The translations under genes and the position numbers were made by a program. From positions 220,981 through 284,980 of the forward strand of contig CAWINB010000001.1 in the NCBI GenBank assembly GCA_963837465.1: a DNA stretch of 64,000 nucleotides. Direction: 5' to 3'. This stretch comes from Candidatus Doudnabacteria bacterium. GTDB taxonomy: Bacteria > Patescibacteriota > Doudnabacteria > UBA920. Numbering within the stretch: position 1 is the stretch's first letter; each line of letters starts with the position of its first letter. The notes under the pieces are model-generated. The model saw only the letters and a program-made list of their open reading frames with translations. It was not told the origin of the DNA and ran no database searches. Shown piece after piece: positions 1-60,716 of this stretch.

Positions 1-1350
1 CGGTTTTTGCCACGTAATCAAATTCTCTAGTAAGTGATATGAATCACCATATTGGCGTGAATTATAAGGTGGATCAATATAAAGCACATCGCACTGAATC
101 TGCCGAATTAGTTGGTTCGCATCTTTGTTATATATTTCATTACTATGATTATTTCGGACATTGATATCCGGAGCAACTAATTTTAGCTCTTGTATGGTAT
201 CCAAAATTTTTCTGTATGCCTCAAAGTGACCAACGGTATTAGCTACCTTATCAACGGCGTAAAGCAAAGAGGTAAGTAGTATATTCTTTTCATTGTCATT
301 GATGTCCAGATGTTCAATTTCATCTCTTATTGCACCAATCTTAAGCGAATTAGCTTTGGTGAAAAATGTGCCGCCAAAGTTTTGGGAAATATAATTTTCT
401 TTGCTTGGATTCAACTGATTCAAGTAATCTATAAGATTGCTTATTTTTTCTCTATCGTATTCATCAGTTTTAAGCCAGCACTGTAGGCTCGTATAGCTAC
501 TGGTTAAAATATCGTTGGAAATAATTTTTGCATCTGGGCGGTTAAAATAATATCCCACCACTCCGGTGCCAGCGAAGATATCACAAAAGCTTTGGAAGTT
601 GCCGCATTTTTCTGACACGATGTCGCCAATGAAACCTAAAAGTTTAGATTTATTTCCTAAAAATCTTCTGCTTTGAATCTGTAACCATTGTTCTTTTTTT
701 TTGGACATTACAAAATTAGGTAAGGTTGTAATCGGCCTGCTAGTTACAAAGGTGTCTGCGCGTATAATCCCAGTAAGTTTGCCTCTAATTTCTAAATGCC
801 TAACAAAAATAGGTTTATAATTATTATTTGCCGGCTGAAGTCTGAAGTTACTCTTTTCTTTGTAAATTCTTTTTAAAGTCGCTTCGCCATTAATAACGGC
901 AACTCCAATTTCTCCATTTTCTACCATAGGTTGCTGATGAATTACAACTATATCACCGGTAGAAATTCCCGCGTCCTGCATACTTTGCCCTTCCACTCGT
1001 AAAGCAAAGTGATTGCCAAATGGAAGGGTTAATTGTTTGGGGACAGAAATAACTTCTGGAATCTCGGTTGCTTCAATTGGCTGTCCTGCGGCGATAATTC
1101 CTAAAAGAGGTATCTGTACAAGTTCCTGACTATCATTTTCGTTTAACTCAATTGAGCGCGCCAAATTATCTATCTTTTTAAGATAGTTTTTTTCAACTAA
1201 AGCGTTGATATGCTGATGTACTGTCGAAACAGCTGAGACTTTAAGACTTTTCTTAATTTCCTCAAGAGTAGGGGGTACGCCTTTACGTTGTATAGCAGTC
1301 CGAATGAAATTCAAGACCTGCGCTTGTCTCTTTGATAAAGGCTTTTTCAT
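1..1350 (-). CDS. LexA-like repressor (winged HTH + S24 peptidase) fused in frame to a Dam-like (D12 class) N6-adenine DNA methyltransferase. It is 3'-truncated by the window edge.
   Basis: Hand translation of the minus strand from the ATG at 1350-1348 has no stop down to position 1. Residues 1-210 read MKKPLSKRQAQVLNFIRTAIQRKGVPPTLEEI...IPLLGIIAAGQP...ALRVEGQSMQDAGISTGDIVVIH...ATLKRIYKEK. This matches the LexA HTH, the Ala-Gly cleavage region and the Ser/Lys catalytic dyad. The sequence then continues KKKEQWLQIQSRRFLGNKSKLLGF...CDIFAGTGVVGYYF...ISNDILTSSY...VLYIDPPYNSRQYGDSYH. These are the Dam family N-terminal G-x-K-xxLL motif, motif I FxGxG and motif IV DPPY. A stop codon (TAA) lies immediately upstream of the ATG. 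Confidence 0.6.
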   Translation of the reverse strand, partial: MKKPLSKRQAQVLNFIRTAIQRKGVPPTLEEIKKSLKVSAVSTVHQHINALVEKNYLKKIDNLARSIELNENDSQELVQIPLLGIIAAGQPIEATEIPEVISVPKQLTLPFGNHFALRVEGQSMQDAGISTGDIVVIHQQPMVENGEIGVAVINGEATLKRIYKEKSNFRLQPANNNYKPIFVRHLEIRGKLTGIIRADTFVTSRPITTLPNFVMSKKKEQWLQIQSRRFLGNKSKLLGFIGDIVSEKCGNFQSFCDIFAGTGVVGYYFNRPDAKIISNDILTSSYTSLQCWLKTDEYDREKISNLIDYLNQLNPSKENYISQNFGGTFFTKANSLKIGAIRDEIEHLDINDNEKNILLTSLLYAVDKVANTVGHFEAYRKILDTIQELKLVAPDINVRNNHSNEIYNKDANQLIRQIQCDVLYIDPPYNSRQYGDSYHLLENLITWQKP

Positions 1351-1390
1351 ATTTTTTTATTTTACTCAAATTTATACTGTTAATTTAATT

Positions 1391-1411
1391 ATACCGAAAA
1401 AATACCGAAAA
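1391..1411. promoter_or_regulatory. Tandem direct repeat ATACCGAAAA x2 with 11-bp register in the divergent promoter region between the LexA-methyltransferase gene and the recombinase gene. It is a candidate operator. On the minus strand the repeat lies next to a TATAAT box.
   Basis: ataccgaaaa at 1391-1400 and again at 1402-1411. The minus-strand reading is ttttcggtattttttcggTATAATtaaatt. Confidence 0.3.
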
Positions 1412-1628
1412 GATAAATGGCTTATCCACATGCTTATAGCCGGTTAGGAGAATTCCAATTTTTTTTGGGGGATTAGTTATCAACTTCCTCAACCTGGACT
1501 TCACTTAGCCGTTGCGTCATTCCTTGTAGTGTAAGCAACTAATAAGGAAAGGAGCAAAATGCAAACAATAACAACAAACCAGGCACTAGGACTGGCTAAC
1601 CAAATCGCCGCGCCCCCACAACAGGTAG

Positions 1629-2906
1629 GGTCTAGCGGCAAGCTATTGCCTGTATGCAAGAAAGAGCTCGGAGGACGACGAAAGGCAGGCGCTGAGCATC
1701 GATAGCCAAATTAAAGAGATGATGCTCATAGCAGACCGCGAACATCTGGTAATATCCGAGGTGCGCAAAGAAAGCCACTCAGCTAAAGATTCTGGCCAGA
1801 GGCCGGTGTACAACCAACTGCTCAAAGATGTTAGGAGCGGAATGTTCGCGGGCATCCTAACATGGTCGCCGGATCGTCTTAGTAGGAATGCCGGTGACTT
1901 AGGGGTGCTGGTGGACTTAATGGACCAGGGACTGCTTAAGGAAATCCGAACTCACGGCCAGCGATTCAGTAACTCACCGAACGAAAAGTTCCTACTGATG
2001 ATCTTATGTAGCCAAGCTAAACTGGAAAACGATAACAGAGGTATCAACGTAAAACGCGGACTTAAAAATAAAGCTGAGCTGGGAATTAGGCCGGGACTGG
2101 CCCCCTTGGGTTACTATAACGAACTAAGTCATGACAGAAATAAGGGTAAGATTGTTGTAGACCCAGTTAGAGCGCCAGCAGTAAAAGAAATGTTTGAGAG
2201 AGTGGCTTACAATGGCGACAGTGGCCGGGACATTCTAAACTGGCTAAGTAACGAAATCGCATTTACAACCAGAACCGGTAAACGAGTGGCGCTAAGTAAT
2301 GTGTACGCCATGCTCAGGAATAATTTTTATTACGGCATGTTTGAATACCCGTTCAAGAGTGGAAATTGGTACGAGGGAACACACGAGCCGCTAATTAATA
2401 AAGATTTGTTCGATAAAGTACAAGAGCAGTTACGAACTGCGCCTAAGTCTATGCCGGGAACCAAAGAGTTCGATTTTACTAAAATATTTACTTGCGGTGC
2501 CTGCGGTTCGGGAGTAACTGCCGAGGAAAAATTTAAAAACCTAAAAGATGGAACGGTAAGAAGATATATCTACTATCACTGTACTGGTGGGTCTGACCGG
2601 AGCTGTAACCAACTTTATATTAGGGAAGATGAAATTTTAAGCCAGCTGATGGATATAATAGACCGCTTAGATATAGACCAGCTCGGGATTAAAGACCGAG
2701 TTTACAAAGAACTATTTCGCTATCAAACATTAATAAAAAGCGTCTTAGGCCAGCCAGGTATGGCGGCCATTGAATTGCCGCAGATAGACACTAAAGCTTA
2801 CGCCAAGCACATACTTAAGGATGGGAGCAGGGATGAAAAACGAGAGCTGCTATCATGTTTAAAAACCAAACTATTGATAAAAGACAAAAAAGTATACGCA
2901 GAATAA
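1629..2906 (+). CDS. Large serine recombinase (resolvase catalytic domain + recombinase domain + zinc ribbon). The N-terminus is out of frame with the only upstream ATG that has an RBS.
   Basis: The frame after the stop at 1626 reads GLAASYCLYARKSSEDDERQALSIDSQ...ILTWSPDRLSRN... (catalytic Ser motif and DRLSR), then ...CGACGSGV...YYHCTGG (zinc ribbon). The ORF track starts at the ATG at 1719, which is internal to the catalytic domain. An ATG at 1559 follows a strong RBS (aaggaaaggag) but is in the +1 frame and encodes a 48-codon ORF that overlaps the catalytic-domain start. Confidence 0.7.
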   Translation, partial: GLAASYCLYARKSSEDDERQALSIDSQIKEMMLIADREHLVISEVRKESHSAKDSGQRPVYNQLLKDVRSGMFAGILTWSPDRLSRNAGDLGVLVDLMDQGLLKEIRTHGQRFSNSPNEKFLLMILCSQAKLENDNRGINVKRGLKNKAELGIRPGLAPLGYYNELSHDRNKGKIVVDPVRAPAVKEMFERVAYNGDSGRDILNWLSNEIAFTTRTGKRVALSNVYAMLRNNFYYGMFEYPFKSGNWYEGTHEPLINKDLFDKVQEQLRTAPKSMPGTKEFDFTKIFTCGACGSGVTAEEKFKNLKDGTVRRYIYYHCTGGSDRSCNQLYIREDEILSQLMDIIDRLDIDQLGIKDRVYKELFRYQTLIKSVLGQPGMAAIELPQIDTKAYAKHILKDGSRDEKRELLSCLKTKLLIKDKKVYAE

Positions 2907-2954
2907 AGTAGGACTCGAACCTAGGAAAAGATTACTTAAAGTAGTTTAGACAAA

Positions 2955-2994
2955 AAATAAGAGCATGGACGCAAAATCCATGCTCTTATTTTCT
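2955..2994 (+). terminator. Rho-independent terminator after the recombinase gene.
   Basis: Perfect 15-bp hairpin aaataagagcatgga / tccatgctcttattt with loop cgcaaaa, followed by T-rich ttct. Confidence 0.6.
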
Positions 2995-3048
2995 ATAGAT
3001 TCTAGACCCGTGATTCAGGGTTAGTAGGTCACCAGGAACCAGAATTTG

Positions 3049-3123
3049 TGGCTGGGGCGCCAGGGATCGAACCTGGGAATGCAGGCTTCAAAGGCCCGTG
3101 CCTTACCGCTTGGCTACGCCCCA
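3049..3123 (-). tRNA. tRNA-Gln (anticodon UUG) with encoded CCA.
   Basis: Reverse complement is UGGGGCGUAGCCAAGCGGUAAGGCACGGGCCUUUGAAGCCUGCAUUCCCAGGUUCGAUCCCUGGCGCCCCAGCCA. It has a 7-bp acceptor stem, U8, anticodon stem CGGGC/GCCUG, loop CUUUGAA giving anticodon UUG, T-arm CCAGG-UUCGAUC-CCUGG, discriminator G and CCA. Confidence 0.85.
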
Positions 3124-3269
3124 ATAATATAGATTACAATTAACAGCTAAAACTATTCGGCAACTAACAGACATTATAAAATAAAACCCCGAAAAAGAAA
3201 AGACAACCAGGAGTTTTGCCGGACGGCGCCTTTAAAAGGTTGAATATTAAGGCAAAAATTGGGGCCAGT

Positions 3270-4010
3270 TTAATTTTGGGGAACATTACCGCTTTGGCCC
3301 AAATCCCCGCCTTTTTGGCCCACGTCAATAACATGCTCTTTCTTCGCGCTAATCTGAAGCTGTAAAATATTTTTGTCCAAAGAAGCCGCTTCTTCCGCTT
3401 TACCACCGGCCTTTAGGCTGTCGCGCTGCTTTTTTAAAGCCGAGAGGGCGACGGTGACTTCGGCCCTGGCTTCTACAATAGCCCGCAGCCTGAGCTGCCC
3501 GTCGCGCGAAAGGGCAGTATTCAAACCTGCTGCCGGGGAAGCCGGGCTGCCGTTGGCTGCCTGGCCACGGGAATTTAAAGCACCGGGTACGGCCGCGGCT
3601 GAATCTTTGGCCGCGAGTTCATCAAGCTCGCTGAGCCTTTCCTGGGCAAATTTGGCCTGTAGCTTGGCTTTGGATTCCGCGGATACGGTTAAAGTTAACT
3701 CCACTTTTTCCTTGGCTCTTTTAATGGAATAAAGTGGCTGGCCCGGTAAAGCGGTATTGGAGGCAAAAGCCGTTCCTGCCAGCATGGACAATCCCAGGGC
3801 CACAGCCGCGAAATAACGGGTAAATTTTCCCCAGTTTTGGGCAAAACCTTTGGCGGCAGTTTGGGGAGATGATAATAACGAGCGGAAAATTTTTTCCTTA
3901 ATCAAAGCCTGTCTGTCCGGAGCCAAAGGTTTTACGCCACTGCTTAAAACGCCCAGCGACTGGATTTCTTTTTTAAACTTTTCGGCAATTTTTTGGTCAT
4001 TAAAAATCAT
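3270..4010 (-). CDS. Putative anti-sigma factor. It is a single-pass membrane protein encoded directly downstream of the ECF sigma factor.
   Basis: 246 aa with a central hydrophobic segment YFAAVALGLSMLAGTAFA. It is co-oriented with the sigma gene and starts 18 bp after it. Confidence 0.4.
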   Translation of the reverse strand: MIFNDQKIAEKFKKEIQSLGVLSSGVKPLAPDRQALIKEKIFRSLLSSPQTAAKGFAQNWGKFTRYFAAVALGLSMLAGTAFASNTALPGQPLYSIKRAKEKVELTLTVSAESKAKLQAKFAQERLSELDELAAKDSAAAVPGALNSRGQAANGSPASPAAGLNTALSRDGQLRLRAIVEARAEVTVALSALKKQRDSLKAGGKAEEAASLDKNILQLQISAKKEHVIDVGQKGGDLGQSGNVPQN

Positions 4011-7539: not shown

Positions 7540-8733
7540 TTACTTCTTTTCCATGGCTCTTAGCTTGGCCGCCTTTGAACGCGGGTTTTGTTTTAATTCT
7601 TCCGGCGAAGCGGTAATTATTTTTTTGGTTAAAATTTTGCCCCGCGGATTTTTGCCGCAAATACACCGCGGGAAATCCGGCGGACAAACACAGCCTTTGG
7701 CCATCCCCGCAAAAAATTGCTTTACCATTCTGTCTTCCAAAGAGTGGAAACTCACCACCACCAGCCGGCCGCCCGGGGCCAACAAATCAAAAGCTTTGGG
7801 TAAAAAACCTGAAAGGTTTTCTAGTTCATGATTTACTTCAATCCTTAACGCCTGGAAGATTCTTCGGGCGGAGTCGTCGGCTTTGTGCTTAACCGGCTTA
7901 GGCAGCGCGTCCTGGATTATCCGGTAAAGATCGTTTGTGTGTTTGATTTCTACCCCCTTACCCCTAGCCCCTATAACCTTGCCAGCTATTTGCCTGCTGA
8001 ATTTTTCTTCCCCATATTCGTAAAAAATTTTCTCCAGCCTTTTTTGGTCGTAATTATTTAAAATAAATTTGGCATCTTCGGGCTGTGACTGGTCAAACCG
8101 CATATCCAGCGGCTGGTTGGTTTGAAAGCTGATTCCCCGGTGCTCCAGCTCGTAAGACGAAAGTCCCAAATCCGCCACAATTCCATCCGGCGCCGGAAAA
8201 TTATGGTTCTTTATAATATGGTCTATTTTGGAAAAATTCCCTTGAACAAGCGAAATATTATAATATAATGATTCAAGGTGGGTTGGGGCTGGTGCCGAGC
8301 GAATCCTTGACAGTTTCGTCTCGCGGGTTCGATCCCCGTCCGGTCCGCCACTTAAAACCCGAAGGTTTGACAAACTCTGAACGTCTGATATACTAGAATT
8401 AACTGTCAAGGTTTCGCTCTGAAGCGCCGGTTTGAGGCCGGAAACCGTCCTTAATTGGGCGGTTTTTTCGTTACTCCAAGAGCTTTTAAAATTCTCAATA
8501 GCATCCTTATCTAAATCTATAGATAGTAATTTCCCTGTCTCCCCAATTTCTTTTAATATCGCCTTGCTGTATCCTCCGCCCCCCAGCGTGGCGTCAACAA
8601 TATTCTTGCCGGGCTTGGGCGCAAGATAAGAAACAACCTCATTAAGTAAAACCGGAGTGTGTTCATAATTATTGACCATGATTGAACAAAATTGACGATG
8701 ATTGACAAGATTGCCACAGCGAATCGTGTTCAA
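7540..8733 (-). CDS. rsmH: 16S rRNA m4C1402 methyltransferase RsmH (MraW) carrying an in-frame insertion of about 65 aa.
   Basis: N-terminus HTPVLLNEVVSYLAPKPGKNIVDATLGGGGYSKAIL and C-terminal ...GGRLVVVSFHSLEDRMVK are canonical RsmH. The protein is 397 aa against about 310 typical. The extra segment (SSWSNEKTAQLRTVSG...GGPDGDRTRETKLSRIRSAPAPTHLESL...) is encoded by about 8245-8440 and is low-complexity. Confidence 0.8.
   Translation of the reverse strand: MNTIRCGNLVNHRQFCSIMVNNYEHTPVLLNEVVSYLAPKPGKNIVDATLGGGGYSKAILKEIGETGKLLSIDLDKDAIENFKSSWSNEKTAQLRTVSGLKPALQSETLTVNSSISDVQSLSNLRVLSGGPDGDRTRETKLSRIRSAPAPTHLESLYYNISLVQGNFSKIDHIIKNHNFPAPDGIVADLGLSSYELEHRGISFQTNQPLDMRFDQSQPEDAKFILNNYDQKRLEKIFYEYGEEKFSRQIAGKVIGARGKGVEIKHTNDLYRIIQDALPKPVKHKADDSARRIFQALRIEVNHELENLSGFLPKAFDLLAPGGRLVVVSFHSLEDRMVKQFFAGMAKGCVCPPDFPRCICGKNPRGKILTKKIITASPEELKQNPRSKAAKLRAMEKK
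8242..8269 (+). promoter_or_regulatory. Near-consensus sigma70-type promoter (TTGAAC-16-TATAAT) antisense to rsmH. It faces the tRNA-like element.
   Basis: ttgaac at 8242-8247 and tataat at 8264-8269 with a 16-nt spacer. Confidence 0.4.
8286..8350 (+). ncRNA. tRNA-like module (acceptor stem + T-arm + CCA; no canonical D or anticodon arms) embedded antisense inside the rsmH insertion.
   Basis: 5' GGGCUGG pairs with CCGGUCC (two G-U pairs). U follows at the U8 position. The T-arm is GCGGG-UUCGAUC-CCCGU. The discriminator is G and the 3' end is CCA at 8348-8350. Only 28 nt separate the acceptor strand and the T-arm. A 19-nt segment at 8297-8315 is complementary to 8401-8419, with one mismatch. 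Confidence 0.4.
8440..8470 (+). terminator. Intrinsic terminator closing the antisense unit inside rsmH.
   Basis: Stem accgucc / gggcggu (7 bp including one G-U) with loop uuaauug, followed by TTTTTT. Confidence 0.4.
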
Positions 8734-19926: not shown

Positions 19927-19933
19927 CTAAATT

Positions 19934-20008
19934 GGAATTATGAATTAGGAATTAGGAATTATGGGCCTTGATCATAATTCCTAATTCATAATTCCTAATT
20001 CATAATTC
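19934..20008. repeat. Heptad-array palindrome, GAATTAG/GAATTAT family.
   Basis: ggaattatgaattaggaattaggaattatgggccttgatcataattcctaattcataattcctaattcataattc. Confidence 0.6.
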
Positions 20009-20075
20009 AGAACCTATTATACCAAAATCCCCAATGTTGTCATAGCCCTTAAAATTAAGCTATAATTGATACAAT

Positions 20076-21892: not shown

Positions 21893-23671
21893 TTAGATAA
21901 GCTTTAAATCTATTATCCTCAACTTCACTTCCTTTTTTCCATTCCATTCATCGCACATCAGTTCCGCAGCGATATCTACAGTATCCCCTATTTTAAGATT
22001 CTTGGCAAAATTAGACGCACTGAACATTATCCCCGCCACTTCTTTGTCGGCAATCCTGAACTTAATTTGGAGGTGAGAGCTTTGCTTACCAACCAGCTTT
22101 ACGGAAATGACTCTGAATTTGGGCATTAAAAATATCGGCTTTGGGTTGCCGATGCCGAAGGGTTCCAGTTGTAGTAACAAGTGACAAGTGACAAGTGACA
22201 AGTCTGTGGGTTCAAGTTCCGCTTCAAGGCGCAGTACAGGCGATGAGTCGTCATCCGCTGAATTTTTATCCGCGTATTCCAGGATTTTTTGGTAAAAAAT
22301 TCCCAGATGTTCATTTTTTACAGTCAGTCCGGCCGCCTGCTTGTGGCCGCCAAAACGCACCAGATGCCGCGAAGCATACTTTAATGATTCCACAACATCA
22401 AAATTCCCCGCAGTTCGCGCCGACCCTGTGGATTCCAACTCCCCTTTTTCCAAAACTATCACGGGCTTGTAAAATTCCTCGGCCAGCTTGCCGGCTACTA
22501 AGCCGACCACCCCTTTATGCCAATCGGCATTGGATAAGACCAAAATCTTTCTTTCCCCAAGCAGCAAGGCGGCTTCACGGGCTTCGCTGACAATCCTTTG
22601 GGTAATGTCCTGCCTGCGCCGGTTGACAGTTTCCAAATCAGCCGCTTTTGGCATTGCGCTTTCCAAATTATTTTCCAGCAATAAATCCAAAGCCTGGTCC
22701 GCGTGCTCCAGCCGCCCGGCCGCGTTTAAACGCGGGGCGATAATAAAACCTAAAGTGTAAGTGTCGGGCGGATTTTTCGCAAAATCCAAAGCCGAAGATT
22801 GGGCCAAAGCGCGCAAACCGGGCCACTTGGTCTTTCGCAAAACCTTAAGCCCATACTTTACCAGTATCCGATTTTCACCCATCAAAGAATGACAGTCCGC
22901 CACGGTGCCAATAGCTACCAAATCGAGCAGCCATTTTTCCCATCCTGGGATGTGTTGTGTGGGGGCGAGCTTCAGCCGCCCGTCATCAAAGGGCGGGCGC
23001 GCAAGCGCGGCCCCTGCACGGACCGCGTCAGACAAAATTCCGCACGCCAATTTAAACGCCACTCCCACACCCGTAATTTCATGGTAAGGATAAGTATCTT
23101 CGGAATTTTTGGGATTAATTAAAGCGTAAGCATCGGGAGTGGGACCGATAATTTCATGGTGGTCGGTAATAATAAAATCAATACCATTTACTTTGCAAAA
23201 TTCCGCCGCGTCCACCGAGTTGGTGCCGCAGTCTACTGTAATGATCAGACCGGCACCGCCATCTTTGATTTTTTCCAGCGCCTCTAAATTCACCCCATAA
23301 CCTTCCGTAAACCTGTCGGGAATATAACTTTCCATATTCTGGTGTCCAAGATATTTAAACGTCTGCCGCAAAACAGCATTAGCCGTCACCGCGTCGGCAT
23401 CGTAATCGCCATAAATACAAATTTTTTCTCCGCGATCAACAGCCAGCCAAATCCTGTCCACGGCCTTTTGCATATCCTTAAACAAAAAAGGGCTGTGCAA
23501 ATTTTCGTACCTGGGGTTTAAAAAATCCGCTGTCTGATGTTTATCCGTCAGCCCCCTATTGTATAAAAGTTGCCTCATCAGAGGCGGGTATTCCGATAAC
23601 TTTTCAGCAACATCCTGGGGAATTTGTGATTTTAATTTCCAAATTTTAGGCATAAACCATTGTATCAGCAT
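21893..23671 (-). CDS. recJ: Single-stranded-DNA-specific exonuclease RecJ.
   Basis: DHH motifs (ICIYGDYDADAVTANAVL, ...IITDHH...) and a DHHA1 region. Confidence 0.85.
   Translation of the reverse strand: MLIQWFMPKIWKLKSQIPQDVAEKLSEYPPLMRQLLYNRGLTDKHQTADFLNPRYENLHSPFLFKDMQKAVDRIWLAVDRGEKICIYGDYDADAVTANAVLRQTFKYLGHQNMESYIPDRFTEGYGVNLEALEKIKDGGAGLIITVDCGTNSVDAAEFCKVNGIDFIITDHHEIIGPTPDAYALINPKNSEDTYPYHEITGVGVAFKLACGILSDAVRAGAALARPPFDDGRLKLAPTQHIPGWEKWLLDLVAIGTVADCHSLMGENRILVKYGLKVLRKTKWPGLRALAQSSALDFAKNPPDTYTLGFIIAPRLNAAGRLEHADQALDLLLENNLESAMPKAADLETVNRRRQDITQRIVSEAREAALLLGERKILVLSNADWHKGVVGLVAGKLAEEFYKPVIVLEKGELESTGSARTAGNFDVVESLKYASRHLVRFGGHKQAAGLTVKNEHLGIFYQKILEYADKNSADDDSSPVLRLEAELEPTDLSLVTCHLLLQLEPFGIGNPKPIFLMPKFRVISVKLVGKQSSHLQIKFRIADKEVAGIMFSASNFAKNLKIGDTVDIAAELMCDEWNGKKEVKLRIIDLKLI
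22174..22201. repeat. Heptanucleotide tandem repeat (GTAACAA GTGACAA GTGACAA GTGACAA) inside the recJ coding sequence.
   Basis: gtaacaagtgacaagtgacaagtgacaa, read directly from the sequence. Confidence 0.8.
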
Positions 23672-38417: not shown

Positions 38418-38500
38418 AGTAATTAGCGTTTAGCGCATAGTGATTAGCGGATAGATTAGGAACGCCTGTTTTCCTAAACGCTATACGCTAACCGCTAAAC
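38418..38500. repeat. GGGTTAG/GCGTTAG-family heptad palindromic element.
   Basis: ttagcgtttagcgcatagtgattagcggatag...cctaaacgctatacgctaaccgctaaacgcta. Confidence 0.55.
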
Positions 38501-38501
38501 G

Positions 38502-39185
38502 CTACATATTGATTATCTGATTAAAATCCTTGGCAATTAAACTTGCGCCACCGATTAGCAAACCGTCGACGTTGCGTTGTTTTAAAAATTCCGCGGCGTT
38601 GGCTAAATTAATACTGCCGCCGTACAAAACTTTTTCGGCTTTATATTTGTTTTTAATAAAAATCGCGATTTTTTCCGCGTGCTCCGGCGTGGCCGCTCTG
38701 CCGCTGCCAATGGCCCAAACCGGTTCGTAGGCCACTGCTACTTTTTTAGCATCAACATCTTTTAAATCCGCCTCCAGCTGGCCGCGCAAAACATCCACCA
38801 CGTCCAAATCATCCTGCTCCACGGTAGTACCAAAACCCACGCACAAAACCGGCGTAATTTTATGCTCCAGCAAAGACCGCAACTTAAAATTCACCATCCC
38901 ATCACTCTCACCCAAAGCCCGTTTTTCACTGTGCCCGACAATGCAATATTTAACCCCCAAATCTTTCAACTGCGCCGCGCTGGTCTGCCCGGTAAACGCG
39001 CCCTTGTCCTGCCAAAAACAATCCTGCGCGCCCAAGTTGGGATAATTGATGGACGACAAATAGATGGTCGGCGGACAAAGCACAACTTTATTTTTGGCTT
39101 TAGTGGAAATCGAAGACGCCAACTTCTGCGCGTCTTTTAGAGTATTAGGATTTAACTTCCAATTTGCGATAATAAGTTTTTTCAT
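38502..39185 (-). CDS. tpiA: Triosephosphate isomerase.
   Basis: ...IIANWK..., ...VAYEPVWAIGSG..., ...GGASL.... Confidence 0.85.
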   Translation of the reverse strand: MKKLIIANWKLNPNTLKDAQKLASSISTKAKNKVVLCPPTIYLSSINYPNLGAQDCFWQDKGAFTGQTSAAQLKDLGVKYCIVGHSEKRALGESDGMVNFKLRSLLEHKITPVLCVGFGTTVEQDDLDVVDVLRGQLEADLKDVDAKKVAVAYEPVWAIGSGRAATPEHAEKIAIFIKNKYKAEKVLYGGSINLANAAEFLKQRNVDGLLIGGASLIAKDFNQIINM

Positions 39186-40218: not shown

Positions 40219-40220
40219 AA

Positions 40221-40262
40221 GGGGTTAGGGGTTAGGGGTTAGGGGTTAGGGGTTAGGGGTTA
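40221..40262. repeat. (GGGGTTA)6 perfect tandem heptamer array beginning 3 nt upstream of the galT start codon.
   Basis: ggggttaggggttaggggttaggggttaggggttaggggtta. On the mRNA strand this is (TAACCCC)6 immediately 5' of the AUG. Confidence 0.85.
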
Positions 40263-40296
40263 GAAAGTGCATTACTCTCGCCCTATTCCCTTGCCT

Positions 40297-58170: not shown

Positions 58171-58227
58171 GAATTAGGATTTATGACATGGGCGCATCCC
58201 TAATTCATAATTCCGGATTCCTAATTC
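58150..58227. repeat. Heptad-array palindrome, GAATTAG/GAATTAT family, between rpsE and rplO.
   Basis: tgaattatgaagcatgaattaggatttatgacatgggcgcatccctaattcataattccggattcctaattccta. Confidence 0.55.
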
Positions 58228-58731
58228 CTATTTGCGCATCTGAGAAAGTGTTTCCTTACTCTTCATCATTTTAAACGCGGCAAAAACCGCTTTGACATTG
58301 TTGACTTTATTGTTGCTGCCAAGCATTTTGGAAACAACATTTTTGACTCCCGACAGCTCCATAACGCTGCGCACCGCGCCGCCGGCAATAACACCGGTAC
58401 CGGGCTTGGCCGGCTTAAGCATCAAACTGGAAGACTTGTACTTTATTTTAAGTTCGTGGGGAATGGTGCCGTTAATTAAAGGCAGCTGGATTAAATTCTT
58501 TTTGGCCTGGTTGACAGCTTTGTTGACGCTCTCGGAAACATCCGCGCCTTTTTTTAAGCCCATACCAACCTTGCCTTTGTGGTCGCCAATAACAACCAGC
58601 GCCCTAAAGCGCATTCTTTTACCGCCGGCCGTGACACGCGTAACGCGTTTAACCTCCACGACTTTTTGGTCGAATTCAGACCTTTCGCGTTCGCCTTCAC
58701 CGCCCCTTGATTGTCTTCGTCTTTTTTCCAT
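58228..58731 (-). CDS. rpsE: 30S ribosomal protein S5.
   Basis: S5 dsRBD and C-terminal domain motifs. Confidence 0.9.
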   Translation of the reverse strand: MEKRRRQSRGGEGERERSEFDQKVVEVKRVTRVTAGGKRMRFRALVVIGDHKGKVGMGLKKGADVSESVNKAVNQAKKNLIQLPLINGTIPHELKIKYKSSSLMLKPAKPGTGVIAGGAVRSVMELSGVKNVVSKMLGSNNKVNNVKAVFAAFKMMKSKETLSQMRK

Positions 58732-59205: not shown

Positions 59206-59282
59206 ATAATAGGGGTTAGGGGTTAGCGTTTAGGGGTTAGATGGGCCCGTCCAGACCCTAATCCCTATACGCTATCCGCTTG
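59206..59282. repeat. GGGTTAG-family heptad element (imperfect inverted halves) abutting the rplR start.
   Basis: taggggttaggggttagcgtttaggggttagatgggcccgtccagaccctaatccctatacgctatccgc. Confidence 0.55.
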
Positions 59283-60600: not shown

Positions 60601-60716
60601 TGAGGTAGGGATTAGGGTATAGGGATTAGGGTATAGGGATTAGGGTATAGGGATTAGGGTATAGAAGGAAACGCTTTCCTGCTAAACGCTAATCCCTAGC
60701 CGCTAGACGCTAATTT
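60601..60716. repeat. Tandem 14-bp repeat (GGGATTAGGGTATA)x4 abutting the rpsZ start, followed by an inverted GCGTTAG-type segment.
   Basis: tagggattagggtatagggattagggtatagggattagggtatagggattagggtatagaaggaaacgctttcctgctaaacgctaatccctagccgctagacgctaa. Confidence 0.7.

Follow-up and report, generated by a model that had tools for sequence, protein, structure and literature searches.

Integration at the 3' ends of tRNA genes is textbook behaviour for tyrosine integrases. The characterised phage-type serine integrases (SPbeta SprA, A118/LI Int, TP901-1 Int, Bxb1 and phiC31) use sites that lie inside protein-coding genes or in intergenic DNA. Mobilizable elements with serine recombinases likewise target protein-coding genes or intergenic sites, and their cores are short (PMC5704250). 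Tyrosine integrases have longer cores and prefer RNA genes, and serine systems have short cores (PMC13626063); among the tycheposons of Prochlorococcus, 27 of 937 elements carry a large serine recombinase (10.1101/2020.12.28.424599). Here we analyse a 64-kb stretch of DNA from a Candidatus Doudnabacteria genome (hereafter the window), in which a large serine recombinase gene is read toward the 3' end of a tRNA-Gln(UUG) gene. A first-pass annotation of this DNA had called a serine recombinase at a tRNA site unusual.

We consider it likely that positions 1 to 3054 of the window make up the rightmost 3 kb of an island about 6.8 kb long, integrated by its own serine recombinase at tRNA-Gln(UUG) in a chromosome of the Patescibacteria (candidate phyla radiation, CPR). 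The first-pass annotation had taken this locus for the edge of an integrated element, and that claim is upheld by the polarity of the recombinase family toward tRNA genes, a motif at the tRNA junction, the swapping of cargo among close relatives and the foreign composition of the cargo. The exact crossover, the far boundary, the function of the LexA-like domain in the cargo and the activity of the element are inferred. The locus reads as follows, from left to right.

1350 to 1, minus strand: first 450 of the 555 codons of a gene for a LexA-D12 methyltransferase fusion (Pfam), the first gene of the cargo operon; the remainder lies left of the window.
1351 to 1432, minus strand: regulatory region of the restriction-modification (RM) module, with a tandem repeat and a block invariant relative to contig L091.
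1462 to 1558, plus strand: conserved promoter region and 5' leader of the recombinase module, delimited by DNA similarity to loci L002, L007 and L003.
1559 to 2906, plus strand: large serine recombinase (integrase) gene, 448 amino acids (aa) when intact and frameshifted here (Pfam, PHROG and the L090 copy).
2954 to 2992, plus strand: intrinsic terminator hairpin of the recombinase gene, identified by folding energy against shuffled sequences and kept in relatives.
3014 to 3048, no strand assigned: candidate attachment half-site on the element side, the best conserved of the non-coding blocks shared by the window, L002, L007 and L175.
3043 to 3054, no strand assigned: candidate common core with the crossover, AATTTGTGGCTG, made up of 6 nucleotides (nt) of spacer and the last 6 nt of the tRNA gene, and directly repeated at the end of L090.
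3049 to 3123, minus strand: tRNA-Gln(UUG), the integration target (ARAGORN, Rfam).

The tRNA-Gln(UUG) gene is the only tRNA gene that ARAGORN finds in the 64-kb window, and it scores 63 bits against the Rfam tRNA family; the Rfam scan returned no match other than this tRNA. The gene is intact, and its 3' end points left, toward the recombinase gene, with 142 nt between the recombinase stop (2906) and the tRNA 3' end (3049). ARAGORN and Rfam therefore agree with the placement of this tRNA at 3049-3123 on the minus strand, 3' end facing the recombinase, that had been read from the sequence at the outset. The recombinase gene and the gene for the LexA-D12 methyltransferase are divergent. The clean intrinsic terminator reported after the recombinase gene was likewise borne out: at 2954-2992, a stem of 16 perfectly matched base pairs closes on a 7-nt loop, and TTTTCT follows. 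A simple terminator scan missed this hairpin, which was shown by folding it against 200 shuffled sequences; none of the 200 shuffles matches its folding energy of -23.3 kcal/mol (z = -7.4). L002, L007 and L175 retain a hairpin at this position despite sequence changes.

The recombinase belongs to a very large family, with at least 8000 scored candidates, the best 120 matches being 58-96% identical. Its named members are mainly from CPR/Patescibacteria (Peregrinibacteria, Saccharibacteria, Kazan, Doudnabacteria, Moranbacteria and Uhrbacteria). We collected 80 loci from species-representative (GTDB) genomes, 50 predicted viral (IMG/VR) contigs and 6 close relatives and, with the window included, scored the orientation of the first tRNA gene within 10 kb downstream of the recombinase. 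We found that this tRNA lay on the opposite strand, facing the recombinase, in all 68 loci that had one: 51 of 51 in GTDB genomes, 13 of 13 in IMG/VR contigs, 3 of 3 in close relatives, and the window itself (1 of 1). An upstream tRNA was present in 7 loci only, though the lengths searched were similar on both sides. The downstream tRNA was at most 400 nt away in 17 of 74 GTDB loci. The tRNAs at family loci are of eight species (Gln, Ser, Asn, Arg, Asp, Glu, Trp and Ile), and an orientation shared by 68 of 68 loci across eight tRNA species excludes conserved synteny as its source. The nearest upstream neighbours were diverse; DNA methyltransferase or restriction genes (about 15 of 77) formed the largest class.

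Where the tRNA lies kilobases away, we also considered whether a leftover tRNA-end fragment abuts the recombinase; the mean best match was 6.8, versus 6.4 in controls, and the idea was dropped. Such a fragment was seen only in L017, as a 12-mer located 117 nt past the recombinase stop. Four of the viral contigs (3300042286_000458, 3300000970_000154, 3300032737_000190 and 3300009873_002614) contain two copies of the recombinase family, and L009 has, at 1160-3442, a second and different serine recombinase beside a REP_ORF2-G2P replication gene.

The DNA between the terminator and the tRNA also follows a rule. Positions 3014-3048 read TTCAGGGTTAGTAGGTCACCAGGAACCAGAATT followed by a variable dinucleotide (TG in the window), with GGTC at 3027-3030, 22 nt from the tRNA end. 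The block TTCAGGGTTRGTAGGTCNNNAGGAACCARAATT is common to the window, L002, L007 and L175; it is followed by a dinucleotide that varies (TG, AG, GT, AT) and then by the tRNA 3' end TGGCTGGGG. This block is better conserved than the remaining spacer. The tRNAs themselves vary: that of L002 is the CUG rather than the UUG isoacceptor, and the T-arms differ among the four loci. Across the collected loci, 14 of 23 first-downstream tRNAs that abut the recombinase and 22 of 45 that are distant from it had GGTC at a distance of 22-25 nt from their 3' end; none of the 47 other tRNAs of the same loci, which served as controls, did. With the interval widened to 20-30 nt, the counts were 45 of 68 first-downstream tRNAs versus 5 of 47 other tRNAs; the offsets peak at 22-27 nt (44 of 68). 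We interpret the conserved block as a candidate element-side half of the attachment site. On this reading, the crossover would fall at the very 3' terminus of the tRNA or only a few bases away, and the presence of GGTC at distant tRNAs too shows that the element ends at the tRNA even when the recombinase gene is kilobases away.

Comparison with close relatives separates a constant recombinase module from the DNA beside it. The recombinases of L002, L007 and L175 are 96%, 92% and 85% identical to that of the window, and all three loci resemble the window in DNA sequence only from about 1462-1513 to the tRNA 3' end, where tRNA-Gln sequence follows the recombinase module. DNA similarity to the window begins at 1513 in L002, 1462 in L007 and 1491 in L003, with unrelated cargo leftward; it extends to the tRNA in L002 and L007 and to the end of the recombinase gene in L003. 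The flanks of L002 are unrelated to the window on both sides despite the 96% identity of the recombinase. The cargo is a type ISP/IIG enzyme in L002 and L003; a different LexA-methyltransferase with a D12 methyltransferase and a 668-aa protein in L007; a type I system in L008; and phage-like small and large terminase genes in L175. Judged by these alignments, the recombinase module (1462-3048) looks like a conserved backbone with exchangeable cargo, either one of several RM types or a phage genome.

In L008, a stretch of 56 nt at 13890-13945 matches the end of the recombinase gene (3' side) at 82% identity, and tRNA-Gln is about 530 nt away. This fragment is distinct from the intact recombinase gene of L008, which lies 2.5 kb upstream, and seems to have been left behind by an earlier element at the same tRNA. 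Four independent short-read contigs break inside the tRNA-Gln gene next to the recombinase (L001, which ends at 3098, L090, which starts at 3078, L007 and L175), and in run ERR10755945 the 19-nt anticodon arm is missing between L001 and L090. These breaks suggest branching of the assembly graph, caused by strain variants or tRNA paralogues.

The frame at 1629-2906 matches Resolvase (PF00239, E = 1.9e-17, covering 3-143 of the 145 profile positions), Recombinase (PF07508, E = 3.3e-16) and Zn_ribbon_recom (PF13408, E = 4.9e-07), the last two both over the curated cut-offs; this combination identifies the product as a large serine recombinase. The catalytic YARKSS, which holds the serine nucleophile in a Y-x-R-x-S context, is encoded at 1653-1670. 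The protein also matches the PHROG integrase phrog_95 (E = 2.7e-58), and its nearest solved structures are the integrases SPbeta SprA/YokA (4.3e-13), TP901-1 and A118. The GC content of the gene is 44.8%.

The first-pass annotation had placed the gene at 1629-2906, and the identity of its product stands on the three Pfam domains; its start does not, and a frameshift had been overlooked. The frame that opens at 1629 has a TAG just ahead (1626-1628), and its first ATG, at 1719, is downstream of YARKSS. Intact homologues are 444-451 aa long, and their N-terminus, MQ..TNQA.GLA.QIAAPP, corresponds to the translation of the window from an ATG at 1559, in another frame, which is preceded by the ribosome-binding site GGAAAGGAG. 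The window has an extra T at 1633 (GGTCTAGCGG, versus GGTC-AGCGG in L090), and this single base breaks the recombinase frame, as assembled, after codon 25. L090, which comes from the same organism, lacks the extra T and encodes an intact 448-aa recombinase with one gap relative to the window. The extra T could reflect either a genuine inactivating mutation of the assembled strain or a mistake in assembly; if it is real, the copy in the window would no longer be self-mobile.

The leader of the gene (1462-1558) holds, ahead of its ribosome-binding site, the boxes GTTATCAACTT (1476-1486) and CTGGACTTC (1494-1502), both of which are retained in L008 and L009 too. A hairpin in the same region (TTCCTTG..CAAGGAA) was considered as a conserved RNA switch and rejected: it gave no consensus structure and is absent in L003.

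The cargo could be followed beyond the window in L090, a Logan contig from run ERR10755945 that is the reverse complement of window positions 1-3078, with one mismatch and one gap, and that reaches 3,764 nt left of the window. The sigma factor and DUF5667 genes of the window are present, 100% identical, on another contig of that run, L001. Metagenome contigs contained no exact match to a 36-mer taken from the window's left edge. In the window, the frame from 1350 to 1 matches LexA_DNA_bind (2.2e-14), Peptidase_S24 (5.8e-28) and MethyltransfD12 (5.2e-34) in Pfam. The complete protein has 555 aa (P0121) and is 100% identical by BLASTP across the window's 450 aa; the single DNA mismatch between the window and L090 falls in this gene and corresponds to a D to N change. 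Its translation shows the AAG (cleavage), GQSM and LKR (Ser, Lys dyad) motifs. The LexA/S24 features of the fusion are thus complete as far as these motifs tell, and self-cleavage and operator binding are predicted.

In L090, the LexA-methyltransferase gene is followed in the same direction by genes for RE_AlwI (E = 4.1e-81), N6_N4_Mtase (8.2e-66) and a 256-aa protein. The RE_AlwI, D12 and N6_N4 methyltransferase genes are consecutive in both L090 and L091. From its predicted products, the cargo of L090 is a complete type IIS-like RM system; what had been described as cargo running off the 5' edge of the window is thereby completed to an operon of this kind. The 256-aa protein (L090 6031-6801; 265 aa from the first in-frame ATG) has no Pfam match and matches PHROG only at unknown function. 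It has 290 homologues, some of them outside CPR, and one homologue of 78% identity stands solitary among housekeeping genes, beside a small GIY-YIG protein; a small GIY-YIG gene also occurs in L002, just past tRNA-Gln. No phage gene was found in the 6.8 kb by Pfam or PHROG.

The cargo is compositionally foreign to the host. Its GC content is 38.1%, versus 45.7% for the rest of the window; host windows of 5 kb have 45.6 +/- 1.4%, with a minimum of 42.8%, which places the cargo about 5 standard deviations (SD) below the host.

Ahead of the operon, the unit ATACCGAAAAA is repeated 2.3 times in tandem at 1391-1415 (on the gene strand, TTTTCGGTATTTTTTCGGTATAAT), overlapping a -10-like TATAAT. A 24-nt block that includes the tandem ATACCGAAAAA and TATAAT is invariant between the window and L091, and similarity wanes past about 1432. 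This block, with its TTTTCGGTAT repeats, would hold the promoter and a candidate operator for the LexA domain. L091 has the same three-gene RM module, with a methyltransferase 90% identical, and no recombinase within 9 kb, so the RM module may have come beside the recombinase independently.

LexA (helix-turn-helix and S24 peptidase)-D12 fusions are common in CPR metagenomes, with lengths of 550-565 aa and identities of 58-90% (P0121-P0240); among the matches listed, more than 80 homologues in that identity range have the same three domains. We found no relatives of the LexA-methyltransferase in viral contigs, and no paper describing the fusion in open-access text. A parallel family has RadC-like domains fused to the same D12 methyltransferase.

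The far boundary was sought at the other end of L090. Its last bases read ...CGTCAGCCACAAATTTT, and the 12-mer CAGCCACAAATT is the reverse complement of window positions 3043-3054. As a direct repeat, L090 25-36 is identical to L090 6829-6840; the two copies lie about 6.8 kb apart and enclose the RM operon. By our own estimate, the number of chance matches for this 45-nt junction is about 0.01-0.03. We lean slightly toward placing the far boundary at this repeat, which gives the island its length of about 6.8 kb. The inverted control gave no match of at least 12 nt in 47 loci. A direct repeat of 15-40 nt of the tRNA-Gln 3' end, proposed by the first-pass annotation as the sign of the second attachment site, was not found in the window, and the 12-nt repeat at the end of L090 was all that appeared. 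That expectation is a rule for tyrosine integrases and needs adjusting here, since serine integrases share only short cores; long terminal repeats are for the same reason not expected. Inside the window, neither the tRNA-Gln 3' end nor the junction core is repeated, including at 1432-1462.

Repeats of the tRNA end occur at other family loci. The tRNA-Gln 3' end of L082 recurs as a 16-nt repeat 2.3 kb upstream of the recombinase (span about 3.7 kb), with a degenerate tRNA-like stretch after it, and in L027 a 16-nt tRNA 3'-end repeat lies 7.8 kb upstream (span about 15 kb). Tandem copies are present at L045, L062, L065 and L072. Terminal repeats of at least 12 nt failed as a general rule: only 4 of 47 loci had them, and one of these cases reflects the similarity of two tRNAs. 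Also set aside was a far-end arm mirroring the tRNA-side arm (TAGGT..GAAC by eye), whose best ungapped match of 13/33 was equalled in 1473 of 2000 shuffles.

These features suggest how the island would have arrived. Insertion would have occurred where tRNA-Gln(UUG) ends on its 3' side, or a few bases away, and the tRNA gene would have been kept intact. One recombinase dimer would bind the acceptor/T-arm end of the tRNA gene on one side and sequence downstream of the tRNA on the other, and a second dimer would bind a comparable site carried by the circular element; exchange would then take place at a short core common to both sites, probably inside AATTTGTGGCTG. From the junction arm and the variable dinucleotide, we predict recombination between short attP and attB sites (about 40-50 bp) at the central dinucleotide. 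Read leftward from the tRNA, the resulting island would begin with the attachment arm (3014-3048) and the terminator; then would come the recombinase gene, which is read toward the tRNA, the divergent RM operon and the 256-aa gene. The predicted empty site is the tRNA 3' end ...CCCCAGCCACAAATTTT joined to the left host flank, the predicted circle junction is ...CCAGGAACCAGAATTTGTGGCTG joined to ACGTTATGGGGCAATGTTC..., and the predicted far junction is ...GGCTAGGTAGATTTGAACATTGCCCCATAACGTCAGCCACAAATTTT followed by host-type genes.

Several observations weigh against an integrated island. The recombinase is frameshifted in the window; the far end consists of one 12-nt repeat at a contig end, and exact 12-13-mers are common within 6.8 kb of AT-rich DNA; direct repeats of at least 12 nt upstream of the recombinase are restricted to the 4 of 47 loci just described; inverted symmetry between the element arms is no better than in shuffled controls; and the RM module is found in L091 without a recombinase. 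In addition, a search for an empty site found none: the closest matches to the host flank (from an FtsI search and in the metagenome) are too diverged or non-syntenic. Among these, in L098 (FtsI 62% identical), the sigma factor/DUF5667 pair again adjoins tRNA-Gln(UUG), whose 3' end is followed by otsB and no recombinase, but this genome is distant and rearranged; in L096 (78%), synteny is lost before the tRNA. If nothing had been inserted, the gene order would be ancestral and fixed, and the recombinase either domesticated or a chance neighbour of the tRNA, a reading in keeping with the missing empty site and with the host-like GC content of the recombinase (44.8%). It is contradicted by the orientation rule, 68 of 68 over eight tRNA species, by a conserved junction motif seen only at first-downstream tRNAs, by L002, whose flanks are unrelated on both sides at 96% identity, and by cargo with a GC content about 5 SD under that of the host, and we regard it as highly improbable. 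Even less credible is a DNA invertase that switches the neighbouring RM genes (phase variation). JGI names some homologues 'DNA invertase Pin-like', and DNA methyltransferase or RM genes make up about 15 of the 77 nearest upstream neighbours; but the protein has the Recombinase and zinc-ribbon domains that small invertases lack, L090 contains no inverted repeat pair bracketing a promoter or gene segment, and inversion leaves the tRNA association unexplained.

The remaining alternatives accept a mobile element and redraw its extent or origin. Perhaps only a recombinase module of about 1.6 kb (about 1462-3048) is tRNA-targeting and mobile, the RM operon being a separate cassette that landed or recombined next to it rather than cargo moved by this recombinase. 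The similarity among the window, L002, L007 and L003 does begin sharply, at 1462-1513; in L091 the RM module has its own conserved regulatory block (to about 1432) and no recombinase within 9 kb; and at some family loci the genes nearest upstream of the recombinase are of housekeeping type. We nevertheless judge this reading unlikely: no copy of the junction core is present at 1432-1462, the tRNA-end repeats of L082 and L027 enclose several kilobases upstream of the recombinase, the 12-nt end repeat of L090 encloses the RM operon, and in L175 phage packaging genes stand in the operon's position. That same locus, where a recombinase 85% identical to that of the window lies beside small and large terminase genes, makes it conceivable that the island is a decayed CPR prophage remnant that lost its structural genes and kept the integrase and RM genes, a reading that partly overlaps with the one we prefer. 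Family members in 50 IMG/VR contigs and the frameshift in the window are compatible with such decay. We think a prophage origin quite improbable, however, as the 6.8 kb hold no phage gene, relatives 92-96% identical likewise carry RM cargo only, of other types, and the recombinase of L090 is intact. The reading of the locus as an RM-carrying island integrated at tRNA-Gln by its own serine recombinase is the one we retain.

Elsewhere in the window, small gaps between open reading frames (ORFs) hold many short arrays in which 7-nt units of differing sequence are repeated in tandem. The arrays are located at 19930-20009, 22173-22203, 38474-38504, 40220-40263, 58199-58230, 59210-59240 and 60606-60664, and their units include AATTAGG, TCATAAT, AGTGACA, CTAAACG, AGGGGTT (6.3 copies at 100%) and TAGGGATTAGGGTA (4.2 copies). 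An RsmH-like ORF at 7540-8733 (minus strand) encodes 397 aa and has an apparent internal insertion relative to the usual length of RsmH, about 310 aa.

The kind of element described here is known; a whole clade of serine integrases found consistently at tRNA 3' ends, with a junction motif, appears new, and we found no paper in open-access text that describes this CPR recombinase family or its tRNA targeting. We propose tentatively, and with somewhat less than even confidence, that a single compact clade of serine recombinases, spread across all major CPR lineages and specialised on tRNA 3' ends, is the main carrier of defence islands and prophages there and fills the niche of tyrosine integrases. 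If this is true, the use of the conserved acceptor/T-arm end as a half-target would allow hops between tRNA species with small changes, the clade would be a clear exception to the division of targets between serine and tyrosine integrases, and the junction motif would be a practical marker of where islands end in CPR genomes, whose mobile elements have been little mapped. Compact recombinases (about 448 aa) with natural, highly conserved targets could also be developed into genetic tools for organisms that at present have hardly any. In the genome studied here, an integrated island would account for the origin of a complete restriction system.

The island shares features with several described systems. 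Like the phage-type serine integrases, its recombinase combines a catalytic resolvase domain, a recombinase domain and a zinc ribbon, its gene lies at the end of the element by the candidate attachment site, and the candidate core is short. Unlike the characterised members of that class, the clade described here is found at tRNA 3' ends and leaves the tRNA genes undisrupted. With 448 aa, the protein is small for the class, and its similarity to the proteins of solved structure is remote (E about 1e-13). The arrangement resembles that of the P4-like tRNA islands of tyrosine integrases, in which an integrase gene lies by the 3' end of an intact tRNA gene, with variable and often defence-related cargo of foreign composition, and the resemblance extends to tandem accumulation at the same tRNA (L045, L062 and L072). 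It differs from them in its unrelated class of recombinase and in its repeats, which are 12-16 nt where seen and mostly undetectable, versus the longer cores of tyrosine integrases. Like tycheposons, which have been described in connection with tRNA genes, these are small integrative islands that carry cargo; they differ in host phylum and in that the serine enzyme is a family-wide rule here, not the exception. Finally, the cargo follows the AlwI-family type IIS systems in pairing an RE_AlwI endonuclease with two methyltransferases, as expected for an asymmetric site, and departs from them in that one of the methyltransferases has a complete LexA-like N-terminus.

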